Virus record (IMG/VR): IMGVR_UViG_2695420863_000013
Strand: one strand, 5' to 3'
Length of the DNA: 13,420 bases
Source of the DNA: a virus
Taxonomy: Duplodnaviria; Heunggongvirae; Uroviricota; Caudoviricetes
Part shown: one piece after another, positions 1 through 12,963 of the stretch
Layout of the letters: each line of letters begins with the position of its first letter
Position numbering within the stretch: the stretch's first letter is position 1
Program-made: the position numbers and the translations under genes
The notes under the pieces: model-generated
Seen by the model: the letters and a program-made list of their open reading frames with translations, nothing else
Told to the model about the DNA's origin: nothing
The model's database searches: none

Positions 1-116
1 GTAATGGCAACCGGTCCGCCGTATGGCTGCCAGCCCTCTTTCAGTTTGTGTGTCAGCTTTTCCGCAAGGTCTGACGGCGACGCCGCCCTGACAACATCAT
101 AATGTTTAATCGACAT
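1..116 (-). CDS. Hypothetical protein, N-terminal fragment (gene continues beyond the left edge of the window)
   Basis: ATG at 116..114 preceded by GGGAGA Shine-Dalgarno 8 nt upstream; open frame reads MSIKHYDVVRAASPSDLAEKLTHKLKEGWQPYGGPVAI to the window edge. No family assigned. Confidence 0.4.
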   Translation of the reverse strand, partial: MSIKHYDVVRAASPSDLAEKLTHKLKEGWQPYGGPVAI

Positions 117-202
117 CGAATTTCTCCCGTGTAGAGGAACAGAGTTAAAAAGCCGGAAGCGGAATCAAATCACAGGATGACCATCTGCCAGTGGCTGGTC
201 GT

Positions 203-229
203 AAAAAAAAGGCCGCGCCATGCGCAGCC
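203..229 (-). terminator. Rho-independent terminator (GC-rich hairpin followed by T8 on minus strand)
   Basis: Minus strand reads GGCTGCGC-ATG-GCGCGGCC followed by TTTTTTTT (plus-strand A8 at 203-210). Lies downstream of the TerB-like gene and small ORF. Confidence 0.6.
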
Positions 230-430
230 GAAAATAAAGGGATAACGATGATAGTTTGAGAAAAACAGAAATAACACTTTTGTGGCAAAGCATGGTGCCG
301 GGTGCCTCCCGGTGAATTCAGTATCAGCACCTGAATCCGCGATTACCCCATATTCCTTCTTGCTGATTGCCCCACCGCACAGGGGGATTCACCATGCAGA
401 AGTGTTTTTAATAAACAGCAAACAAAAAAA

Positions 431-544
431 TCAAGCATTATGCAGGCTGTTTCTTTTTATCACCGGCCACAGCAATACCATAATGCCGCAGACCAGCACC
501 CCATCCGCCAGCACCGACATGATTCTGCTGGTGAAATCCACCAT
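431..544 (-). CDS. Possible small hydrophobic protein (37 aa, one predicted transmembrane segment)
   Basis: ATG at 544 to TGA at 431; translation MVDFTSRIMSVLADGVLVCGIMVLLWPVIKRNSLHNA. Below the size cutoff of the ORF track. No convincing Shine-Dalgarno; sits between the TerB-like gene and the terminator. Confidence 0.25.
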   Translation of the reverse strand: MVDFTSRIMSVLADGVLVCGIMVLLWPVIKRNSLHNA

Positions 545-593
545 CACCACCAGAAACAGCAGGAGTGCAGCCACAGTCAGGCGCAGTTTTACC

Positions 594-1027
594 GTCACAG
601 GTAATTCTCCAGACGAAGACCCAGAACACCGGCAATCTCTTCCAGCACCTTGCGCTCTTCCGGCTCAATTTCGCCGTCTGCCTCCGCAATGGCCACCGCC
701 ACATCCAGCACATCTTCCGCTTCACGCGTATCGTGTTTCACATCCTCGATCTCACGTAACGCCGCACGACGACCAGTTTTAAAGTTCGTATCCAGCTGAC
801 CGATAATGGTTGCGCTAATCGCATTAATTTCTGACGTAAACGCGTACAGCGCAGGCTGATTACGCAGTACCTGTTCGATCTTCGCTTTCTAGGAAGCCTC
901 ACATTCACCATCTGCACAGGCCACCAGGTATGCGGCGTTAATCACCACCTGTGCCAGATCGCGTTTTTCAAACTTTCTAATTTCCGTTGCCGCTCTGCGG
1001 GCTTTTTTTACCAAAAATACCAAACAT
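594..1027 (-). pseudogene. TerB-family (tellurite-resistance TerB-like) gene disrupted by a frameshift and an in-frame TAG
   Basis: ATG at 1027 with AAGGAA Shine-Dalgarno gives MFGIFGKKSPQSGNGN then stop. The TerB-like frame continues out of frame (ARRAATEIRKFEKRDLAQVVINAAYLVACADGECEAS-stop-KAKIEQVL...EADGEIEPEERKVLEEIAGVLGLRLENYL). The shift maps to a T7/A7 homopolymer at 1003-1009 and the amber codon to 889-891. Resemblance to TerB is from recalled sequence. Confidence 0.6.
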
Positions 1028-1196
1028 CGTGACGTTCCTTTGGGTGGGTGAGCCAACGCCCGGGAGCGATCTGCCCACAGAGAAAGTCACACTGACCACT
1101 CCATAAGCTCCCCCCGAAAGGCTCTGTGGTTGGTATGCGCCGGGCGTGGTGCGGATACAAAAAAGGTCCGCAAAAGCGAGCGAGGGAAAATAAGTG

Positions 1197-1273
1197 TGGT
1201 GCGTTGTACTGGGTTCGAACCAGTGACCGATTGCTTAGAAGGCAATTGCTCTGTCCGGCTGAGCTAAAAACGC
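1197..1273 (-). tRNA. argO: tRNA-Arg (anticodon TCT), 77 nt with encoded CCA
   Basis: Minus-strand cloverleaf: D stem GCTC/GAGC, anticodon stem ATTGC/GCAAT with loop CTTCTAA, T loop TTCGAAC, 3' CCA. One T-C mismatch in the acceptor stem. Symbol inferred from the ileZ-argN-argO order known in lambdoid/Stx phages. Confidence 0.75.
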
Positions 1274-1286
1274 AGAATACCGATAA

Positions 1287-1363
1287 TGGACCGCCATCGG
1301 AGACTCGAACCCCGCGAAACCAGCTTCGAAGGCTGGCGTTCTATCCCGATGAGCTAATGGCGG
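1287..1363 (-). tRNA. argN: tRNA-Arg (anticodon TCG), 77 nt with encoded CCA
   Basis: Minus-strand cloverleaf: perfect acceptor stem CCGCCAT/ATGGCGG (C1-G72), anticodon stem CCAGC/GCTGG with loop CTTCGAA, T loop TTCGAGT, 3' CCA. One mismatch in the D stem. Symbol assigned by order only. Confidence 0.7.
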
Positions 1364-1370
1364 TATGTGA

Positions 1371-1446
1371 TGGTGGCCCTTGCTGGATTTGAACCAGCGG
1401 CCTGGCGATTATGAGTCGCTCGCTCTCACCACTGAGCTAAAGGGCC
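1371..1446 (-). tRNA. ileZ: tRNA-Ile2 (anticodon CAT, lysidine type), 76 nt with encoded CCA
   Basis: Minus strand reads GGCCCTTTAGCTCAGTGGTGAGAGCGAGCGACTCATAATCGCCAGGCCGCTGGTTCAAATCCAGCAAGGGCCACCA. Near-identical in architecture to E. coli tRNA-Ile2 (ileX/ileY) as recalled; perfect acceptor stem. Confidence 0.85.
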
Positions 1447-1455
1447 GGGCGCAGG

Positions 1456-1484
1456 ATAATAACGTTACGAAATCAATGTTGCAA
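1456..1484 (-). promoter_or_regulatory. Sigma-70 promoter for the tRNA cluster (TTGCAA -17- TATTAT)
   Basis: Minus strand has -35 TTGCAA (1484..1479), a 17-nt spacer, and -10 TATTAT (1461..1456), ending 9 nt upstream of the tRNA-Ile 5' end. Confidence 0.55.
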
Positions 1485-1564
1485 GCATTCAAGAATCACC
1501 TGGTTAAAAATTACCCTTGCTTCCTCCACCAGCGCATTCACCATGTCTATCCGAGATAAGTGGC

Positions 1565-1598
1565 ACAAAAAAACCCGCTTGTGGGCGGGTTTTGTTTG
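1565..1598. terminator. Bidirectional intrinsic terminator just downstream of the Q-like gene (candidate tR'-like late terminator)
   Basis: Hairpin CCCGC-TTGTGG-GCGGG at 1574-1589, flanked by A7 upstream and TTTTGTTTGCTTTT downstream, so U-tracts exist on both strands. Position between Q and the tRNAs matches lambdoid pR'/tR' layout. Confidence 0.6.
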
Positions 1599-1656
1599 CT
1601 TTTGCCATCACGTACAAAATCGGCAAAATATCAGATTTGCATGAAATATATGCCTT

Positions 1657-2346
1657 TCAATCTACTTTTGCAACACTTTGCTTTGAAAATGCCGCCTTTT
1701 GTTTTGAACGCGTTCTCATTACAAACAATAAAGCCTCACTATCCAGTCGGTGAAAAATGTGTTTCATTGCAACCCAGTGACGAGTAAATGTTTTGGACCA
1801 GTTTTTAGTTGTCACTCCCACCAGTAATGCCAGCTCCTTGTATTCATAACCTTCCCCACCAAAAAGTTCTGCTTTTACTGCCTGCGCCGCCAGCCAGATT
1901 AATTTTTTCAGGCGTTCCTGCGTTTTCCCTGCAATTTTTCTGGTACCGGATTGAGTATTAAATTCATTCCACGCCCACTGTGTTATCGCGATCTGATATT
2001 CCCAACAAATACTCCCGCTGTAACACCACAACAACCAGGCTTTATGATGTTCTTCAAGAGACAGAACAGCCCGCCGCCACGATGATGTCGAAAACTCAAT
2101 CGGACTGACCAGAGGAATTGACGTCCCCTTCGCCAGCGATTGCTTTCCCGGGATTGGGGGATTATCCCGCGTTATCATTTTTCCAGTCACTTCATCGCGG
2201 TACCGGATTTTTTTACGCCTGTAACGCCCTGTATCGAACATGGCATTCTCCTGCCAGGCTTCAAGCTGACCTTTTGTTGCCCCACTCAAATCAGCGGTGG
2301 CGATAATGAGCTGCTCACGCACAAACTGTAAATACTGGTTATTCAT
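1657..2346 (-). CDS. Q-like late antiterminator (by position and loose family resemblance)
   Basis: Probable start ATG at 2346, overlapping the rusA TGA stop as ATGA (the track ORF begins 2 codons earlier at GTG 2352). Immediately upstream of a terminator and the tRNA cluster and downstream of rusA, the canonical Q position. No zinc finger of the lambda-Q type was seen, so the family is uncertain. Confidence 0.55.
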   Translation of the reverse strand: MNNQYLQFVREQLIIATADLSGATKGQLEAWQENAMFDTGRYRRKKIRYRDEVTGKMITRDNPPIPGKQSLAKGTSIPLVSPIEFSTSSWRRAVLSLEEHHKAWLLWCYSGSICWEYQIAITQWAWNEFNTQSGTRKIAGKTQERLKKLIWLAAQAVKAELFGGEGYEYKELALLVGVTTKNWSKTFTRHWVAMKHIFHRLDSEALLFVMRTRSKQKAAFSKQSVAKVD

Positions 2347-2708
2347 GCGCACCCCAGTTCTGTGATTTTTATCCCCAACCGCCCACCAGGAACAAGCTGA
2401 CCGCGCACAATATTGATTTCATCAAACTGCTCGTCGTCTATGAGCAGCCCCGCATGCGTCAGTGCATCCAGTGGTGCCTTCAGGATATTGTCCAGGTCAC
2501 GACGGCGCTTATCCGGTGGCTCTGCAATAATTTTTATTGCCAGCCTTCCGGACAGGTTTAATTTCAACCGCTGCTGGCGAACAATTAGTGCCACATCACG
2601 GCGATAACGCTCACCGACTTTTGATACAAAATATGTGCTGCCACGACGTCGCCAGTAAGTATTCACCGTTGGCGGGTAAGGCAAAACAAATTCTATGCGT
2701 TCAGTCAT
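2343..2708 (-). CDS. rusA: Holliday junction resolvase RusA
   Basis: 121-aa protein MTERIEFVLPYPPTVNTYWRRRG...PDKRRRDLDNILKAPLDALTHAGLLIDDEQ...GGRLGIKITELG. The RRRDLDN motif and overall pattern match RusA of DLP12 as recalled. Start abuts the upstream gene's stop. Confidence 0.85.
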   Translation of the reverse strand: MTERIEFVLPYPPTVNTYWRRRGSTYFVSKVGERYRRDVALIVRQQRLKLNLSGRLAIKIIAEPPDKRRRDLDNILKAPLDALTHAGLLIDDEQFDEINIVRGQLVPGGRLGIKITELGCA

Positions 2709-3764
2709 TTATGCTTTCCACTTCAGGACGCCCGAATTTCTCGCGTGCATTAAAAAACGAATCAGCAACAACAGCTGGCTGCCGTGTTTTTCTTCAAAAT
2801 CTTTTACCCCGGCGTGCAGTTCGTTATGACATTTACGGCACAGCGGAATAACAAACAAATCGTCAGCCTTCGTTCCCATCCCTCCTAGTCCATGACCAAT
2901 GATGTGATGCGGATCATCTGCCTGATTGTCACACGTCATGCATTTCTGCGTTTTTACCCAGCGCGTGTATACGGGCATCTCTTCCCGTTGTGGTTTCTGG
3001 CGCTGGAGATACTGAGCCGGTGACTCCGGATCAACGGCAATGCTTACCACCGTCTTTTCCTGTGGCGGGTTTTGCTGGTGGGCGTGAGGCATCGGCGCAA
3101 GATTTTTTGTGCGCTGCTTCAGTATGCTGGTGGCGGTCTGCTCTCCCGGCACGATGTCGCTTTCACGGTACATTGAGCGGATTTTTTCCGCACGCAACCC
3201 CAGCGAACGACGTAATACCGCTTCCGGTAGCGCGTCCGCCACCTGATTGCGGACCGCCCACCAGGATAATTCAGCCAGCGATAATTCCCGTTCCTGCGAG
3301 CCATTCATTGCATGGCGTATGACGTCAATCATCCATGCAGACAGGTTTTGGTGAGCAAGTTGCCCGAGTGATTCGGAGGTCTGGTCGCGCAGCTGGTTGT
3401 CGCAGTGCCAGCACAACACCATTGCGCCGGTACCATAACGGTGAATGACGGTTTCACTGTGGTGATAATCGCCGTGTGGCCACTGGCAGGATTTAACATG
3501 GCGCAGTAACCAATCAGACAATGCGCCAGCGCCACCAGCAGCACGAATCACTCGTTCGTCGCTGAAAAATGGCAGTAATGATTTATCCTCCGCCAGCGGC
3601 TGGCGAACGGCAGGAACGACCCCGGACGGCAGATTACGCATGCTTTTCGGTTCCGGCTCCACCAGTACCCGGGTATTGTGGAATACCGGCATGGATTCAC
3701 GGCCCGGCTTAACGATCACCAGCCCGAGTTCCGGTACCAGAACAGGTCGAAGTAATACCCGCAC
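2709..3764 (-). CDS. DUF968-type phage protein (YdfU-like) with a C-terminal HNH nuclease motif
   Basis: 351-aa ORF with GTG start at 3764 preceded by GGAGGT Shine-Dalgarno. C-terminus has CMTCDNQ...HHIIGH...CRKCHNELH (CxxC...HH...CxxCHxxxH, HNH-like). Same position as ydfU in the Qin prophage (quuQ-ydfU-rem-hokD), as recalled. Confidence 0.6.
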   Translation of the reverse strand: MRVLLRPVLVPELGLVIVKPGRESMPVFHNTRVLVEPEPKSMRNLPSGVVPAVRQPLAEDKSLLPFFSDERVIRAAGGAGALSDWLLRHVKSCQWPHGDYHHSETVIHRYGTGAMVLCWHCDNQLRDQTSESLGQLAHQNLSAWMIDVIRHAMNGSQERELSLAELSWWAVRNQVADALPEAVLRRSLGLRAEKIRSMYRESDIVPGEQTATSILKQRTKNLAPMPHAHQQNPPQEKTVVSIAVDPESPAQYLQRQKPQREEMPVYTRWVKTQKCMTCDNQADDPHHIIGHGLGGMGTKADDLFVIPLCRKCHNELHAGVKDFEEKHGSQLLLLIRFLMHARNSGVLKWKA

Positions 3765-4116: not shown

Positions 4117-4143
4117 AAAAAACAAAACCCGCCGAAGCGGGTT
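4117..4143 (-). terminator. Intrinsic terminator downstream of hok copy 1 (copy 1 of a repeated hairpin)
   Basis: Hairpin AACCCGC-CGAA-GCGGGTT (4126-4143) followed on the minus strand by TTTTGTTTTTT. Confidence 0.6.
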
Positions 4144-4211
4144 AAGTGCGGGTGCATTGAGGATGCCTGACACATCAGAGGTGGCGAGGGATTTCTCCCC
4201 CGCCTGGTCTC

Positions 4212-4367
4212 TTACTCCTCAGGTTCGTAAGCTGTGAAGACAGCGACCTCCGTCTGGCCGGTTCGGATTCGTACCTCGCAGAGGTCTTTCCTCGTTACCA
4301 GTGCCGTCACTATGACGGTTAAACAGATGACGATCAGGACGATTAACATCGCCTTTTGCTGCTTCAT
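4212..4367 (-). CDS. hok: Hok-family type I toxin (HokD/RelF-like), copy 1
   Basis: 51-aa MKQQKAMLIVLIVICLTVIVTALVTRKDLCEVRIRTGQTEVAVFTAYEPEE; matches HokD/RelF as recalled except one A-to-V change. Start set at the MKQQ methionine within the longer track ORF. Confidence 0.85.
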   Translation of the reverse strand: MKQQKAMLIVLIVICLTVIVTALVTRKDLCEVRIRTGQTEVAVFTAYEPEE

Positions 4368-4402
4368 AGCCTGCTTCTCCTTGCCTTTCGGCACGTAAGA
4401 GG

Positions 4403-5101
4403 CTAACCTAACTGGTGGGCGTGAGGCATCGGCGCAAGATTTTTTGTGCGCTGCTTCAGTATGCTGGTGGCGGTCTGCTCTCCCGGCACGATGTCGCTTT
4501 CACGGTACATTGAGCGGATTTTTTCCGCACGCAACCCCAGCGAACGACGTAATACCGCTTCCGGTAGCGCGTCCGCCACCTGATTGCGGACCGCCCACCA
4601 GGATAATTCAGCCAGAGATAATTCACGCTCCTGCGTACCGCTTATTGCGTGACCGATGACGTCAATCATCCATGCTGACAGGTTTTGATGAGCAAGTTGC
4701 CCGAGTGATTCGGAGGTCTGGTCACGCAACTGGTTGTCGCAGTGCCAGCACAACACCATTGCGCCGGTACCATAACGGTGAATGACGGTTTCGCTGTGAT
4801 GATAATCGCCGTGTGGCCACTGGCAGGATTTAATATGGCGCAACAGCCAGTCAGACAATGCACCAGCACCACCAGCAGCACGAATCACCCGTGCGTTACT
4901 GAAAAACGGCAGCAATGTTTTGTCTTCCACCAGCGGCTGGCGAACGGCAGGAACGACCCCGGACGGCAGATTACGCATGCTTTTCGGTTCCGGCTCCACC
5001 AGTACCCGGGTATTGTGGAATACCGGCATGGATTCACGGCCCGGCTTAACGATCACCAGCCCGAGTTCCGGTACCAGAACAGGTCGAAGTAATACCCGCA
5101 C
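4403..5101 (-). CDS. Truncated DUF968 paralog (232 aa; lacks the C-terminal HNH region), probable gene remnant
   Basis: N-terminal ~230 aa nearly identical to the 2709..3764 protein, then ends at TAG 4403-4405 exactly where homology to the hok cassette begins. GTG start at 5101 abuts the upstream gene's stop. Confidence 0.6.
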   Translation of the reverse strand: MRVLLRPVLVPELGLVIVKPGRESMPVFHNTRVLVEPEPKSMRNLPSGVVPAVRQPLVEDKTLLPFFSNARVIRAAGGAGALSDWLLRHIKSCQWPHGDYHHSETVIHRYGTGAMVLCWHCDNQLRDQTSESLGQLAHQNLSAWMIDVIGHAISGTQERELSLAELSWWAVRNQVADALPEAVLRRSLGLRAEKIRSMYRESDIVPGEQTATSILKQRTKNLAPMPHAHQLG

Positions 5102-5765: not shown

Positions 5766-6869
5766 TCAAACAATCTGGAAAATATTTCTTGGATTTGTAA
5801 TAGGTCTGTTGATGGAGAACAACTCACGAATTAAATCTTGGCTCAAGCCAGTTTTCATAAGAATTCTTAGCCAGGTTGCATCATCCAGCATTTCAATCGC
5901 CTCGGCCAGCATGCCGGGTTCTTCAGGGCGCAAAAGTTCATCACCAGGTTCAACTCTCGTATACCCTCTGGAATTAAGATGCATATAGCCAGTTCTTGCC
6001 TGTTCCTGGGTCAATAAGCCTAATGCGCTGGCTCGATAAATACACATTTTAAGGCTGATTTTCCATCTAAGTTTAAATTCAACCAGAGCATTCCAGTCGA
6101 ATTGCTTACCTCGTATTCGTGGAAATTCTTTAATGAAAGATAACCTGGGAACTAATAAGGCGCTCGAAAAGTGATCGGCTTGTGATTCCGTAAGTTTATC
6201 ACCTGTCGTTATGCCCTCATGCATTACTAAATGCCCTAATTCATGACCTAAATCAGAGCGAAATCTACATATGCTTTTTTTAACATTGTTCCTGATGATA
6301 ACAGGCCTGTTATTGTGAACAGTAAAAGCATCAACACGATCATCGACTCCCGTAACATGCGCAACGATTACCCCTAAACTCTCCGCCAATTTAACCATTG
6401 ATGATATAGGGCCAAGACCTAAATTCCAGGCACGGCGACAATCTTCTGCCACTCGCTCAATATCATTCGGAGTAAGTAATTCAGCCCCTGGGTGCTCCGG
6501 TATGTTAACGTCAGGAAATTCGATTTCACCTTCAACAGCAGAAATTATAATATTAAGAATCTCAGCCCTGGCCAATACACTATTAGTCAGCGTTTGAGTC
6601 CTGGACTTCTTACTCCGAAAATGGCAGACATCACTTTCCAGAGCGTATTTTCGTTCAGTAAAAAGAAAACTGGACTTAATCATAAGCGCTGAAGATATTA
6701 ACTCAAGACATTGCTCCGATGGCCTGCACCCCTTCTCCAGTTTGCTAACGAATTGCTTTGTCTTGCCAATTTTTTCGGCTAACTCTTCACAAGAAAGCCC
6801 AACAGCCATTCTCGCTAGTTTGAGCTTATCACCCCGATACTCAGTGAAGTTATTCACCTGATGTTCCAT
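5766..6869 (-). CDS. XRE-family HTH fused to an ImmA/IrrE-type (COG2856, Peptidase_M78-like) zinc metallopeptidase
   Basis: N-terminal HTH (LKLARMAVGLSCEELAEKIGKTKQFVSKLEKG). HEXXH zinc motif in RSDLGHELGHLVMHEG, and the downstream signature ESQADHFSSALLVP typical of COG2856. Start probably ATG 6869 (track gives GTG 6872); overlaps the upstream gene by about 20 nt. AT-rich relative to flanks. Confidence 0.75.
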   Translation of the reverse strand: MEHQVNNFTEYRGDKLKLARMAVGLSCEELAEKIGKTKQFVSKLEKGCRPSEQCLELISSALMIKSSFLFTERKYALESDVCHFRSKKSRTQTLTNSVLARAEILNIIISAVEGEIEFPDVNIPEHPGAELLTPNDIERVAEDCRRAWNLGLGPISSMVKLAESLGVIVAHVTGVDDRVDAFTVHNNRPVIIRNNVKKSICRFRSDLGHELGHLVMHEGITTGDKLTESQADHFSSALLVPRLSFIKEFPRIRGKQFDWNALVEFKLRWKISLKMCIYRASALGLLTQEQARTGYMHLNSRGYTRVEPGDELLRPEEPGMLAEAIEMLDDATWLRILMKTGLSQDLIRELFSINRPITNPRNIFQIV

Positions 6870-7500
6870 CACTGCTCACATCCAAATCTTTATCCTTCGT
6901 ACGCCGACGAAGAGGCACCTTATTAATCTCCGCTTCGTCAGGGAGTGTGTTATAATCAAGAGGCATAAGCGGCATCGATGCTGTAGATTGATGAGAAACT
7001 ATACTAATCTGAGCACCATAAGTATTAAATCCAACAAGAGCTACCTCCCAACGAGGCAGTGTGGACTCTAATTCACCATCGCCCTCTTCGGATAAAAAAG
7101 GCTCAGCTATGACTCGCCATGTAATATCTTGCTCAGCCTCAACATCACCAAACAATGAGAGCTGCTCATACTCTACTTTATTTCGACGCAGACGATGTTT
7201 CTTTTTGGGGTTATTAATGCAATCTTTGGTAAATTGTAGCGGAACTTTATTTAAAGCAACTACATAGTCCAACCCCTTGGAAATCATCTCAAGGCCAGGA
7301 ATTGCATCTTCATTTTGAATAAGATGATTTCTGACCCAATCATAAGCCCTTACACCTTCAGACCAGTTGCTGTCTAATGCGTGCTTATGATAGTACAGCT
7401 GCTCAAGTACGTTAGCGATCTCCGCCAACAAGTGGCGAACATAGTTTTCAGCAAGATAAGGTTGAAATTCCCAACAAGGAGCTAACTGATTTTCATTCAT
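6850..7500 (-). CDS. Hypothetical 216-aa protein, first gene of the two-gene module (candidate effector/toxin)
   Basis: ATG at 7500 (MNENQLAPCWEFQPYLAENYVRHLL...). No recognisable motif; has a basic patch KKKHRLRRNK and an acidic C-terminus. AT-rich. Translationally overlaps the HTH-peptidase gene. Confidence 0.55.
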   Translation of the reverse strand: MNENQLAPCWEFQPYLAENYVRHLLAEIANVLEQLYYHKHALDSNWSEGVRAYDWVRNHLIQNEDAIPGLEMISKGLDYVVALNKVPLQFTKDCINNPKKKHRLRRNKVEYEQLSLFGDVEAEQDITWRVIAEPFLSEEGDGELESTLPRWEVALVGFNTYGAQISIVSHQSTASMPLMPLDYNTLPDEAEINKVPLRRRTKDKDLDVSSDGTSGE

Positions 7501-7573: not shown

Positions 7574-7597
7574 TGCAAAAACCCGCCGAAGCGGGTT
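7574..7597 (-). terminator. Intrinsic terminator downstream of hok copy 2 (copy 3 of a repeated hairpin)
   Basis: Hairpin AACCCGC-CGAA-GCGGGTT (7580-7597) with a short U-tract (5 T) on the minus strand. Confidence 0.5.
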
Positions 7598-7858
7598 AAG
7601 TGCGGGTGCGTTGAGGATGCCTGGCACATCAGAGGTGGCGGGAGATTACTCCCCCGCCGGGTCTCTTACTCCTCAGGTTCGTAAGCTGTGAAGACAGCGA
7701 CCTCCGTCTGGCCGGTTCGGATTCGTACCTCGCAGAGGTCTTTCCTCGTTACCAGTGCCGTCACAATGACGGTTAAACAGATGACGATCAGGGCGATTAA
7801 CATCGCCTTTTGCTGCTTCATAGCCTGCTTCCCCTTGCCTTTCGGCACGTAAGAGGCT
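7580..7858. repeat. hok cassette repeat (terminator hairpin + hok + ~40 nt upstream), second copy; first copy at 4126-4404
   Basis: About 279 bp nearly identical between 4126-4404 and 7580-7858, including the hairpin and the whole hok ORF; homology ends at ggctaacct on the upstream side in both copies. Confidence 0.75.
7666..7821 (-). CDS. hok: Hok-family type I toxin (HokD/RelF-like), copy 2
   Basis: 51-aa MKQQKAMLIALIVICLTVIVTALVTRKDLCEVRIRTGQTEVAVFTAYEPEE, identical to HokD/RelF as recalled. Start set at the MKQQ methionine with a GGGGAAG Shine-Dalgarno-like element upstream. Confidence 0.85.
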   Translation of the reverse strand: MKQQKAMLIALIVICLTVIVTALVTRKDLCEVRIRTGQTEVAVFTAYEPEE

Positions 7859-8058
7859 AACCTACATTTGTGAGACATAGATTGGGCCTCAGATTAATGT
7901 TAAGCGTCTTGCAGGACGCGAAATGTTAACTGGGGCTTTTCTCTATCTGCCTTTCAGTGTTCATGCCTGAGACAGATAGCCTCAAGCACCCGCAGCCATT
8001 CTACTTAACTCACGTCACCTCGCCAATATGAAATCAATCAGAAAGGTGATCCATAAAA

Positions 8059-8745
8059 TCACTCCTTCTCTTCTTTTCCGTAGTGGAGTTGGCCAATTTT
8101 GATAAGAGGGCGTCCCTGAGATTTGCGGTGTAGATTGGTATCGCGCAGAGAATACACACAGCCACAATATTCCTGCTGATAGAATTTTTCGCGCTTGCTG
8201 ATTTCAATCATACGGGACGAGCCGCCCTGCTTGCGCCAGTTATAATCCCAGTACACCATACCCGGATAATGCGCAACAGCTCGCCGCCCACACTCGTTAA
8301 CCTGCTGCATATTTTTCCAGCGTGAAATGCCCAGTGAACTGCTGATCACACTGAAACCATTTTCAGCAGCGTACAACGCTGTCCGCTCAAAACGCATGTC
8401 AAAACACATGGTACAACGGATCCCCCTCTCAGGCTCCCATTCCATTCCTTTGGCACGTTCAAACCAGTTGTCGGTGTCGTAATCAGCATCGATAAACGGC
8501 ACGCCGTGTTGTTCAGCAAAGCGAATATTTTCATCCTTACGAATTAAATACTCTTTCTGAGGATGAATGTTCGGGTTGTAGAAAAAGATGGTGTAGTCGA
8601 TTCCCGAGGCCTGAAGCGCCTCCATCACTTCACCGGAACATGGAGCACAGCAAGAGTGCAGTAGTAGTTTGTTTGCCCCGTTTGGGAGCTCCAATTTAGG
8701 CCGTTTGAAATCAGCAATAGTCATAAATATTTTTATTGGGGTCAT
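8059..8745 (-). CDS. DUF208/QueH-like protein (putative epoxyqueuosine reductase family)
   Basis: 228-aa ORF with an N-terminal [11 protein letters not shown] motif and a C-terminal [11 protein letters not shown] motif, which I recall as characteristic of QueH. No good Shine-Dalgarno at either candidate ATG (8745 or 8724). Confidence 0.55.
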
Positions 8746-8898
8746 GAAAATAGCACAGAGTGTAGCATCAGAGCAGGGCTATCGGGAATATATGTCTAAA
8801 TCTGGTAATATCTGGTTTTGACGCAAAGCGGACAACCACGCTGGCTCTACCCTGCGCCATGAAAATGTCAATTCACATCTGAACTAATGCTCTTTAAT

Positions 8899-9324
8899 CT
8901 AGTAACGTCTAAAATACCTAACATTTCCTTGATAAAATGCCAGTACACGCTGCATAGCTTCGCTCTTCCGGCACTCGCGACAGATTATATTCAGGCGCCT
9001 GTCGTAGCGGCGTATTTCGCCGTCTGGTAACGACCAGATAAGGTCCGGATCAACCACTGCAGGTTTCTTCACCTTTGCCCTTGAGAGTTTTTTGCGAGCA
9101 TTTTGCCAGTCCTTACGCGCCTGTTCAGACGGGAATAACCCGTAACCAGAGTTGTATACATCGCCACTGGCAACCAGCTCTCTGGCGAGAACACTCATCA
9201 GATATCTTGTCGCACCTGTCTTGGCTTCCAGTTGCCGCAACGTCTCGCGACCGCTCAGACGTACAAGTTCAACAACCTGCCCTTTAATTTTTTCCCGCTC
9301 TTCTTGTGTAAATACTTTTGCCAT
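8899..9324 (-). CDS. Hypothetical phage protein (141 aa)
   Basis: ATG at 9324 (MAKVFTQEEREKIKGQVVELVRLSG...) with GGAGG 7 nt upstream (track ORF starts at TTG 9339). No family recognised. Confidence 0.5.
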   Translation of the reverse strand: MAKVFTQEEREKIKGQVVELVRLSGRETLRQLEAKTGATRYLMSVLARELVASGDVYNSGYGLFPSEQARKDWQNARKKLSRAKVKKPAVVDPDLIWSLPDGEIRRYDRRLNIICRECRKSEAMQRVLAFYQGNVRYFRRY

Positions 9325-9339
9325 AAGCGCCTCCGGCAA

Positions 9340-10110
9340 TCACTTTTCCGATACAACACGGCGGGAAGAATCAGTAATCTGTCGAACAATATCCCGGTGC
9401 TTGTTCAGCTCCCGCAGCGCGGCGCAGACTCGCTCCCACTTCTGAACATCACTTTTCGCCCTGCGCAGCGCCAGGTTTGCCCTGCGAAGGGACGGAAAAA
9501 TCAGCTCATCTGCTTGCGTTTCGGTAAACGATGGCAACGGCTGCACAATGTCCGCCACAGTTTCTGTTTTAATTTCTTCCTGTGTTGCGGCTTCCCGGAC
9601 TGGTAACGCAGCACCTGCTGGCTGAGGAAAGGCCTTACCATCACTTTCCGTTACCAGCGCGGCTTTCGGCTCTGCTGGTAAATTATCGCCCGGCATGCAG
9701 TAACGAAATTTACCGTTCTGATTAACGCGTGCCAGCCGCCCCGTTGCGGTTACCACCGCCAGCGTGGAAGCAACCTTGCGAGTACTGACACCGAACTTAC
9801 CCGCCAGTTCCTCACACGTTTTAGCCCCATCCTGACCGATAAACTCAATCATCATGTCTGCGGTAACTTTTTGTTCGACCTCCCCGGTCAGCATATCCTG
9901 TGCTTCAGATTTTACTGGCCGCTCTTCGGTTACCCGGGATTCACCTTCGCCAGCCAGAAACCAGGTGTGACCAGTTTTATCAACGACGCCTTTTCTTTTG
10001 AGTTCCCACAGCTCGTTGAGAACCTCTTCACGACTGATATCAAGTCGCGCGGCCAGTTCTACCGATGTGGCTTTTCCCATTGCTTTCAGTGCGTCAAATA
10101 CGGTTTCCAT
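9340..10110 (-). CDS. Hypothetical phage protein (256 aa) with two winged-helix-like segments
   Basis: ATG at 10110 ([43 protein letters not shown]...) with GGAGG 9 nt upstream (track ORF starts at TTG 10128). A second similar segment is [32 protein letters not shown]. Family unassigned. Confidence 0.5.
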
Positions 10111-10143
10111 TAAAATTTCCTCCGACAAAATCGTTTCTCAGAT

Positions 10144-12501: not shown

Positions 12502-12963
12502 ATGAAAAAAACACGCGAAGTGATTGCAACTCCAGAAGCGAGCAAGAATTTAAAAGCCGCATGGAATGCAAGAAAAAAAGAGCTGAAGCTGACTCAAGAG
12601 CTGGCGGCTGAGTTGTTGGGATTCGAATCTCAAGGCACCGTTAGCCAGTATCTGAACGGCAAGATACCGGTAAATACCGACGCTGCGCTAAAATTTGCGG
12701 CTCTGTTAAAGGTAAAACCAGAGGACATTCGAGAAGACCTTAAAGACTTAATGAATTATGTAAGATCATCAGATACTTATGATGATAACTTTTCAGGCAA
12801 AGGATGGAGGCTGGTCAATGAAGAACAGGCAGAGTTACTTAACCTCTTCGAGATTCTACCTGCGTCAGAAAAAGCCAAACTCCTTAACCAGCTACGTGGA
12901 CTAAACAAGCTCTACGAGGAAGCCTTCGAGAACATGCTGGCACTAAAGAAACGTAACCAGTAG
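12502..12963 (+). CDS. Prophage repressor, RacR-like (XRE-type HTH)
   Basis: 153-aa MKKTREVIATPEASKNLKAAWNARKKELKLTQELAAELLGFESQGTVSQYLNGKIPV...; HTH near the N-terminus; divergent from the Cro/YdaS-like gene; followed by a strong terminator. Confidence 0.65.
   Translation: MKKTREVIATPEASKNLKAAWNARKKELKLTQELAAELLGFESQGTVSQYLNGKIPVNTDAALKFAALLKVKPEDIREDLKDLMNYVRSSDTYDDNFSGKGWRLVNEEQAELLNLFEILPASEKAKLLNQLRGLNKLYEEAFENMLALKKRNQ

Follow-up and report, generated by a model that had tools for sequence, protein, structure and literature searches.

A prophage-borne queH gene common in Escherichia coli and its probable role in cobalamin-independent completion of queuosine

QueH is an iron-sulfur enzyme acting on tRNA-Asp, -Asn, -His and -Tyr, in which it converts the epoxyqueuosine (oQ) at position 34 to queuosine (Q). 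Q is finished on the tRNA by QueA followed by either QueG or QueH (PMC5372724; PMC9508795), and the two alternatives differ in their cofactors, QueG needing cobalamin whereas QueH is cobalamin-independent and iron-dependent (PMC11906303; PMC13443448). A later account (PMC6850298, summarising Frey et al. 1988) states that the tRNA of bacteria grown without B12 in glucose-salts medium contains oQ34 and not Q34, and that growth in rich medium leads to Q34. Staphylococcus aureus has both QueG and QueH, which are expressed differently, and this has been read by the authors of that study as a response to cofactor supply (PMC13443448). Phages are known to reuse FolE, QueC/D/E and DpdA for DNA modification, but Hutinet et al. 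state that they found no homologues of QueA, QueG or QueH in the viruses analysed in 2019 (PMC6884629). A search of the accessible literature for QueH, DUF208 or epoxyqueuosine reductase in combination with phage or prophage found no discussion of a phage-borne QueH.

The DNA analysed here (the window) is a stretch of 13,420 nucleotides from IMG/VR virus record IMGVR_UViG_2695420863_000013. Compared over its whole length, it is matched best by E. coli chromosomes, which cover 87% of the window at about 98% identity. The original prediction was that a QueH-like gene lay beside a toxin cassette in a lambdoid prophage that also carried its own tRNAs, and this description of the setting has been borne out. 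The presence of cI/cro/cII-like, O/P, RusA and Q genes identifies a lambdoid prophage, and in strain MSB1_7C the element is complete, having genes for head, tail, lysis and integrase, and adjoins ompW. A repressor gene on the plus strand (12502..12963) is divergent from the cro/cII-like genes. The order on the minus strand is then cro-like, cII-like (YdaT family), O-like, P-like, DUF1627 (9340..10128), DUF977 (8899..9339; 'Ren-like' in PHROGs), which directly precedes queH, then queH itself, sok/hok (7666..7991) and an RmrT/RmrA pair (RosmerTA; 5766..7500, PADLOC matches), followed by a second hok with a truncated DUF968 copy, DUF968, RusA, Q and three tRNA genes (1197..1446). The toxin cassette adjoining queH is hok/sok, in which sok scores 120 bits in Rfam and hok matches HOK_GEF. 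The tRNA genes, also on the minus strand, have the anticodons Arg-UCU, Arg-UCG and CAU (Ile or Met; annotated as Ile). A tie between queH and these tRNAs was considered and rejected, since their anticodons are not of the GUN type and they are therefore not substrates for queuosine.

The gene had been placed at 8059..8745, and the longest open reading frame in the ORF list does occupy these positions (minus strand, ATG start, 228 aa), but translation probably begins from the second ATG (8724), seven codons or 21 nt inside that frame, because the RefSeq annotation and the N-termini of homologues agree on this point. RefSeq WP_000150294.1 ('epoxyqueuosine reductase QueH', 221 aa) begins at the second ATG, the same position is used in loci L001 and L002 (the latter being the MSB1_7C prophage), and MTIADFKRP is where the N-termini of close homologues align. 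On this basis the coding sequence extends over 8059..8724 on the minus strand and specifies 221 aa plus a stop codon. Inspection of the upstream sequence found no recognisable Shine-Dalgarno sequence before either candidate start.

The protein is a member of the QueH family (DUF208, PF02677), as had been supposed from its motifs. The profile search against Pfam PF02677 ('Epoxyqueuosine reductase QueH') gave E=1.1e-65 and 221.5 bits against a curated cut-off of 23.5 bits, with residues 27-201 of the 228-aa frame aligned to positions 1-174 of the 175 in the profile. A profile search of NCBIfam returned no matching model, despite the RefSeq name QueH, and phmmer against the PDB sequences matched Thermotoga maritima QueH (7lc5) at E=7.8e-22. 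Matches of this strength lie well outside what chance would produce. An AlphaFold2 model built from 32 sequences is of moderate confidence only (mean pLDDT 71.3, pTM 0.72), and its top five Foldseek matches in the PDB, namely 7lc7, 7lc5, 9d86, 9deu and 9dco, are all structures of T. maritima QueH (E values of 1e-9 to 7e-8, target-normalised TM of 0.72-0.76). The next matches, with E values some four orders of magnitude weaker, are TilS, TtuA and LarE, which are tRNA enzymes of the adenine-nucleotide alpha-hydrolase fold. The model thus predicts a QueH-like fold for the prophage protein.

Two cysteine motifs, HSCCAPCS and YCGC, had been named in the original prediction and both are present, at residues 30-37 (codons 8635..8658, minus strand) and 193-196 (8158..8169, minus strand) of the 228-aa frame, and a third, RCTMC, a CxxC motif at residues 110-114 (8404..8418, minus strand), was also found. 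In the numbering of the 221-aa protein the cysteines concerned are Cys25 and Cys26, which are aligned to Cys9 and Cys10 in the T. maritima enzyme, Cys104 and Cys107 in RCTMC, and Cys187 and Cys189 in YCGC. All six are invariant in an alignment of six proteobacterial homologues with the T. maritima crystal sequence, so that every conserved cluster ligand shared with the T. maritima enzyme is kept. HSCCAPC, RCxxC and YCGC occur in all of the 80 best genome homologues, which represent many proteobacterial lineages and some others, and also in a homologue of only 37% identity. One difference from the T. maritima enzyme is that Cys29 sits opposite its Asp13 (CCAPC vs CCAPD), this being the residue altered in the D13N mutant of T. 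maritima QueH named in the PDB title of 9dco, as Cys9 is in the C9S mutant of 9d86. Since a cysteine occupies the Asp13-equivalent position in all 80 of the nearest homologues and in the 37%-identical one, Cys29 appears to be a normal variant of the family and no peculiarity of the phage copy. Taken together, the profile match, the predicted fold and the full set of cysteines make it very likely that the gene encodes an active QueH enzyme.

The gene is far from rare. A megablast search found it in 995 of 5426 complete E. coli genomes (18%), with at least 80% of its length covered in 985 of the 995, at least 99% identity in 707 and the lowest identities at about 91%; in every E. coli match listed the annotation is 'epoxyqueuosine reductase QueH'. 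The exact protein is on at least 1000 contigs under the name 'MULTISPECIES: epoxyqueuosine reductase QueH [Enterobacteriaceae]', its 90%-identity protein cluster includes Shigella proteins, and a 100%-identical copy lies inside the matching prophage module of E. albertii. In IMG/VR 195 viral contigs encode a relative, and the best 80 are all 100% identical in protein. Deposited phage genomes present a different picture. Among 50,697 records the sole carrier detected by DNA similarity is Escherichia phage HannyBb, an isolated, viable phage whose copy (93.6% identical in nucleotides, 96.8% in amino acids) occupies the same slot as in the prophages and is annotated 'hypothetical protein'. The expectation that queH would be unusual cargo for such an element therefore holds for deposited phage genomes, from which it is nearly absent, but not for E. 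coli prophages, in which it is common. A tblastn search of the phage collection returned 25 records, most of them unconvincing. The one virome contig examined, MT835504.1, labelled 'Bacteriophage sp.', was rejected as a source of phage queH because its ABC-transporter, arginine-biosynthesis-type and topoisomerase genes mark it as bacterial-looking DNA, and the 'Acinetobacter phage MD-2021a' records (328-378 kb), which hold an Acinetobacter-type QueH, were left uncounted; our count of phage QueH excludes both of these and the other unannotated tblastn contigs. The PHROGs family, phrog_3217, is described as of 'unknown function' and its profile begins at an internal methionine, and hence has no CCAPC motif. 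The identity of the gene is thus already known, in that it is an ordinary QueH and is named so in RefSeq, and what has gone unremarked is that it is common cargo of Escherichia prophages, that it is strongly constrained there and that it is nameless in phage-centred resources.

The position of queH is constant on one side only. DUF977 lies immediately before it in all of the 80 IMG/VR viral contigs compared (the best 80 of 195), and further upstream the replication modules differ between prophages, being either of the O/P or of the YdaU/YdaV type. Downstream the IMG/VR contigs have hok-DUF968, hok-RmrT-RmrA-DUF968, hok-Rem or DUF968 directly, E. coli 7/2 has a Kiwa KwaB-like gene with a partner ORF, and strain ST70 has a DUF1971 gene. 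Because the downstream genes change whilst queH stays, queH is not tied to the toxin cassette and is better described as stable cargo at the edge of a variable slot. The carriers include apparent cryptic elements of the Qin/Rac type.

An important consideration is whether the gene has been maintained during its residence in prophages. Five prophage alleles (those of the window, HannyBb, ST70, 95-3322 and 7/2) have intact frames and keep all ligand cysteines, and the pairwise Nei-Gojobori estimates among them are 0.03-0.45 for dS and 0.046-0.091 for dN/dS. The low dN/dS ratio across dS values of up to 0.45 means that the protein has been kept functional, and there is strong purifying selection on queH during prophage residence. 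Outside this group of alleles the closest relatives are QueH proteins from Citrobacter koseri, Klebsiella and Enterobacter, at about 90% identity, and at 78-86% identity there are those of Klebsiella aerogenes, Kosakonia, Erwinia, Pectobacterium, Providencia, Photorhabdus, Serratia and others. The genomic contexts of three relatives were inspected and all are chromosomal and non-phage. The Erwinia gene has a PurL-type gene before it and a two-component sensor kinase after it, the Providencia gene is near a TmcA-type tRNA acetyltransferase gene, and that of a Citrobacter-like contig lies beside a LysR regulator and acetyltransferases.

The sequence immediately upstream of queH bears both on the origin of the gene and on its expression. 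A putative extended -10 element, TGCTACACT (8759..8767, minus strand), precedes the 8724 ATG by about 35 nt. It is kept in four of the five aligned prophage alleles, strain 7/2 having TGCCACACT. The upstream DNA of these alleles is mosaic, and a segment of roughly 45 nt that begins with CTCTGATGCTACAC and runs up to the ATG is common to all, with one base different in 7/2; the ST70 allele becomes homologous to the others at CTCTGATGCTACAC, a little upstream of the -10-like motif. Chromosomal queH genes are preceded, at a comparable distance, by similar motifs, namely TGCTAAAAT in the Citrobacter-like contig, TGCTACACT in Erwinia and TGCTATATT in Acerihabitans. Because a -10-like motif is common to the prophage alleles and to chromosomal queH, the gene was probably captured from another Enterobacterales chromosome with its own promoter region included. 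A simple scan for the sigma-70 consensus called no promoter upstream of queH, including at TGCTACACT, and a terminator scan found none flanking queH and none between queH and hok, the nearest being at 7580..7597, after hok. Compared with a moron, which has its own promoter and terminator, queH has a conserved -10-like motif that the scan did not call and no terminator before hok. With no promoter called and no terminator separating queH from its neighbours, expression of the gene in a repressed prophage is uncertain.

The explanation that best accommodates these observations is one in which the prophage supplies the last step of queuosine synthesis in a B12-independent form. In agreement with the expectation that the E. 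coli chromosome uses QueG for this step, queG was found with at least 80% coverage in all 5426 complete E. coli genomes, and therefore each carrier of prophage queH has two genes for one step. Cobalamin synthesis is beyond E. coli, and it is because QueG needs cobalamin which the cell cannot make that a B12-independent benefit is proposed. The gene now sits as cargo directly after DUF977, in the early-right region of the Qin/Rac-like lambdoid prophages that Escherichia carries. On this proposal its product would act on host tRNA, turning oQ34 into Q34 with no need for cobalamin, and a lysogen or infected cell would gain a B12-independent route to Q, the host QueG depending on imported cofactor. 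We infer an active enzyme that may be expressed in the lysogen, and regard it as likely overall that a working QueH, captured from an Enterobacterales chromosome, gives B12-independent completion of Q, a statement that can be rated so highly because its core is the identity of the enzyme. That the benefit lies in B12 independence in the lysogen is a plausible but tentative suggestion. In E. coli no strong phenotype is known to set oQ apart from Q, and for this reason the selective benefit of queH may be small or may lie elsewhere.

The same activity might alternatively be used by the phage itself, if queH is transcribed along with the early-right operon in lytic growth. Conversion of host oQ-tRNA into Q-tRNA would then tune how the NAU and NAC codons of phage genes are decoded, in which case queH would be a translation-oriented auxiliary gene comparable with the phage tRNAs. 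The arrangement of the region is what would be expected, in that queH is co-oriented with and downstream of the cro/cII-like, O/P, DUF1627 and DUF977 genes with no terminator-like site between, the same prophages carry tRNA genes and the viable phage HannyBb retains queH. We nevertheless consider this use, and the auxiliary role that goes with it, unlikely, given that the phage tRNAs are of Arg and Ile/Met types and are not Q substrates, that the -10-like motif common with chromosomal queH points to expression independent of pR and that queH is intact in the apparently degraded Qin-like element of 7/2, where only a benefit to the host can act. We also know of no difference in decoding between oQ and Q. 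Use by the phage and benefit to the lysogen are mutually compatible. The variable downstream slot raises a further possibility, since it holds hok/sok and RosmerTA in the window and a Kiwa KwaB-like gene in 7/2, and colicin E5 cuts Q-bearing tRNAs; queH might accordingly have a part in defence against phages or in counter-defence, for instance through a change in an anticodon modification recognised by a tRNA-cleaving toxin. Such a function is very improbable, as QueH itself matches no PADLOC family (RmrT and RmrA being matched by a pair of ORFs further downstream), the varying neighbours beside a constant queH imply that it has no fixed partner and the existence of near-identical orthologues on chromosomes points to an enzymatic role that has not changed.

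It was also proposed that the gene could affect the queuosine status of tRNA or belong to a nucleoside-modification pathway, and the two parts of this proposal have fared differently. The former fits the data presented here. The latter, which would include a phage DNA modification such as 7-deazaguanine protection from restriction, has a precedent in the phages that reuse FolE, QueC/D/E and DpdA (PMC6884629), but we find it scarcely credible for this locus. No DpdA/TGT-like, FolE, QueC, QueD, QueE or QueF gene is among the 74 annotated features of the MSB1_7C prophage and its flanks, and a check of other prophage contexts for further 7-deazaguanine pathway genes likewise found none among the annotated genes of those inspected; the 2019 study that provides the precedent states that neither QueH nor QueA or QueG homologues were found in its viruses (PMC6884629), and an identity of 78-90% to chromosomal QueH makes a new substrate unlikely. 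Finally, queH might be a functionless passenger, a captured fragment drifting on defective prophages. Every genome already has queG, so that the step is duplicated, many carriers resemble cryptic Qin/Rac-type elements and PHROGs assigns the family no function, yet a drifting fragment would hardly show dN/dS of 0.05-0.09 over dS of up to 0.45, five of five alleles intact with all ligand cysteines and at least 80% of the gene in 985 of 995 genomes, and we think this highly unlikely.

The setting is one in which prophages spread a tRNA-modification enzyme with a different cofactor need from one E. coli strain to another, and in which that enzyme is strongly constrained. It may be, and we put this tentatively, that prophage queH is a lysogenic-conversion gene that makes the last step of queuosine synthesis B12-independent in about one fifth of E. 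coli strains. Were this so, such strains would hold Q and not oQ when corrinoids are scarce, as in B12-free media or under competition for corrinoids in the gut, and queH would be the first documented phage-borne enzyme from the tRNA-specific part of the queuosine pathway. Should lysogens express the gene, a lack of B12 would leave some strains with oQ in their tRNA and others with Q, a difference that would bear on comparisons of tRNA modification, codon decoding and B12 physiology across E. coli isolates. The distribution of the gene also exposes a gap in the annotation of phage resources, PHROGs giving 'unknown function' and the HannyBb record a hypothetical protein for what RefSeq calls QueH.

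The prophage protein can be compared with several known systems. It has the full length of the Pfam family, the six cysteines and, in its predicted fold (TM 0.72-0.76), the architecture of T. maritima QueH (7LC5/7LC7/9DEU), but the identity is about 30-33%, CCAPD there is replaced by CCAPC here and the prophage protein has some 20 extra residues at each end. The QueH proteins of other Enterobacterales (C. koseri, Klebsiella and Enterobacter at about 90% identity; Erwinia, Providencia and Photorhabdus at 79-86%) are almost the same protein, being like it in length, in motifs and in having a similar upstream -10-like motif, whereas in the three contexts inspected their genes are chromosomal and non-phage, and the present gene is flanked by DUF977 and hok/sok within a lambdoid prophage whose host already has queG. 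QueG of E. coli (YjeS) carries out the same reaction (EC 1.17.99.6) and the two genes occur together in 995 genomes, but the families are non-orthologous (PMC5372724) and cobalamin is needed by QueG and not by QueH. The 7-deazaguanine clusters of phages (DpdA with FolE and QueC/D/E) are likewise phage-borne queuosine-pathway genes (PMC6884629), although they modify DNA and are without QueA, QueG or QueH, whereas the prophage here has QueH alone. The pair of enzymes in S. aureus is similar in that one genome has QueG and QueH for one step with different cofactors (PMC13443448), but there both are described as the bacterium's own, and here the second enzyme is prophage-borne and present in only 18% of strains.

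The queH gene of the prophage is followed directly at its 3' end by a hok/sok type I toxin-antitoxin locus (minus strand, 7580..7991), delimited by Rfam, ORF and promoter/terminator scans, which comprises sok (7816..7991; Rfam, 120 bits) and a Hok/Gef ORF (7666..7878), together with a site resembling a promoter at 8026..7998 and, at 7597..7580, a terminator-like hairpin. Other prophages carry different genes in this slot. In a Qin-like element of E. coli 7/2 (L013 3153..4792) the slot just 3' of queH is without hok/sok and is taken instead by a gene annotated as 'Kiwa anti-phage protein KwaB-like' together with an adjoining hypothetical ORF, and in E. coli ST70 a DUF1971 gene occupies it. Genes for defence or toxins recur at the position after queH, which acts as a hotspot for such cargo.

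A further cargo block in the window is a RosmerTA-type anti-phage toxin-antitoxin pair, recognised by PADLOC matches as two overlapping ORFs on the minus strand (5766..7500). RmrT (6850..7500, minus strand) matched PDLC03929 with E=4.6e-25 and is without a Pfam domain, and RmrA (5766..6872, minus strand) matched PDLC03943 with E=6e-105 and carries HTH_3 and Peptidase_M78 domains. The pair looks like a recent insertion, since it was found in only about 7 of the 80 related IMG/VR contigs examined (the best 80 of 195 viral contigs encoding a QueH relative). The hok region is present in two copies with 97% identity (window 4124..4410 and 7578..7864), and a second duplication, with 95% identity, covers the DUF968 N-terminal coding part (3075..3374 and 4412..4711), there being a truncated DUF968 copy at 4403..5101. 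As the RosmerTA block is flanked by the two hok copies, its arrangement suggests that it was inserted via recombination between repeated modules.

Beyond the 3' end of the Q antiterminator gene come a match to the STnc100 sRNA family (254..426, minus strand; 100.8 bits) and three tRNA genes (1197..1446, minus strand) for Arg-UCU, Arg-UCG and a tRNA with a CAU anticodon, which is assigned to Met by ARAGORN and to Ile by RefSeq. None of the three prophage tRNAs is a queuosine substrate.

MT835504.1, a virome contig deposited as 'UNVERIFIED Bacteriophage sp.', carries a QueH homologue and looks like bacterial DNA because its other genes encode ABC transporters, an argininosuccinate-lyase-type protein, a semialdehyde dehydrogenase and a topoisomerase. 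The 'Acinetobacter phage MD-2021a' records, of 328-378 kb, likewise look like host sequence, and such bacterial-looking 'phage' records inflate the apparent number of phage-borne QueH. In phage resources queH goes unnamed: the queH of phage HannyBb (L003 5980..6666) is annotated as a hypothetical protein and the PHROG family for QueH, phrog_3217, is labelled 'unknown function', its profile being without the CCAPC motif because it starts only at Met34 (221-aa numbering), inside the protein.

The QueH proteins of E. albertii fall into two groups, one with a 220-aa QueH that clusters with the Citrobacter/Klebsiella type and the other with a prophage QueH that is 100% identical to the window copy and lies in the same module as there (cI, cro, O, P, DUF1627, DUF977, QueH). 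The most divergent prophage allele is that of E. coli O7:H15 ST70 (L010 4988..5656), with 91.7% nucleotide identity, in which Arg replaces the Ile that precedes the CxxC motif by two residues and Ser replaces Cys145, the reading frame being otherwise intact. Cys145 is nearly invariant among close homologues and lies outside the set of cysteines held in common with T. maritima QueH.
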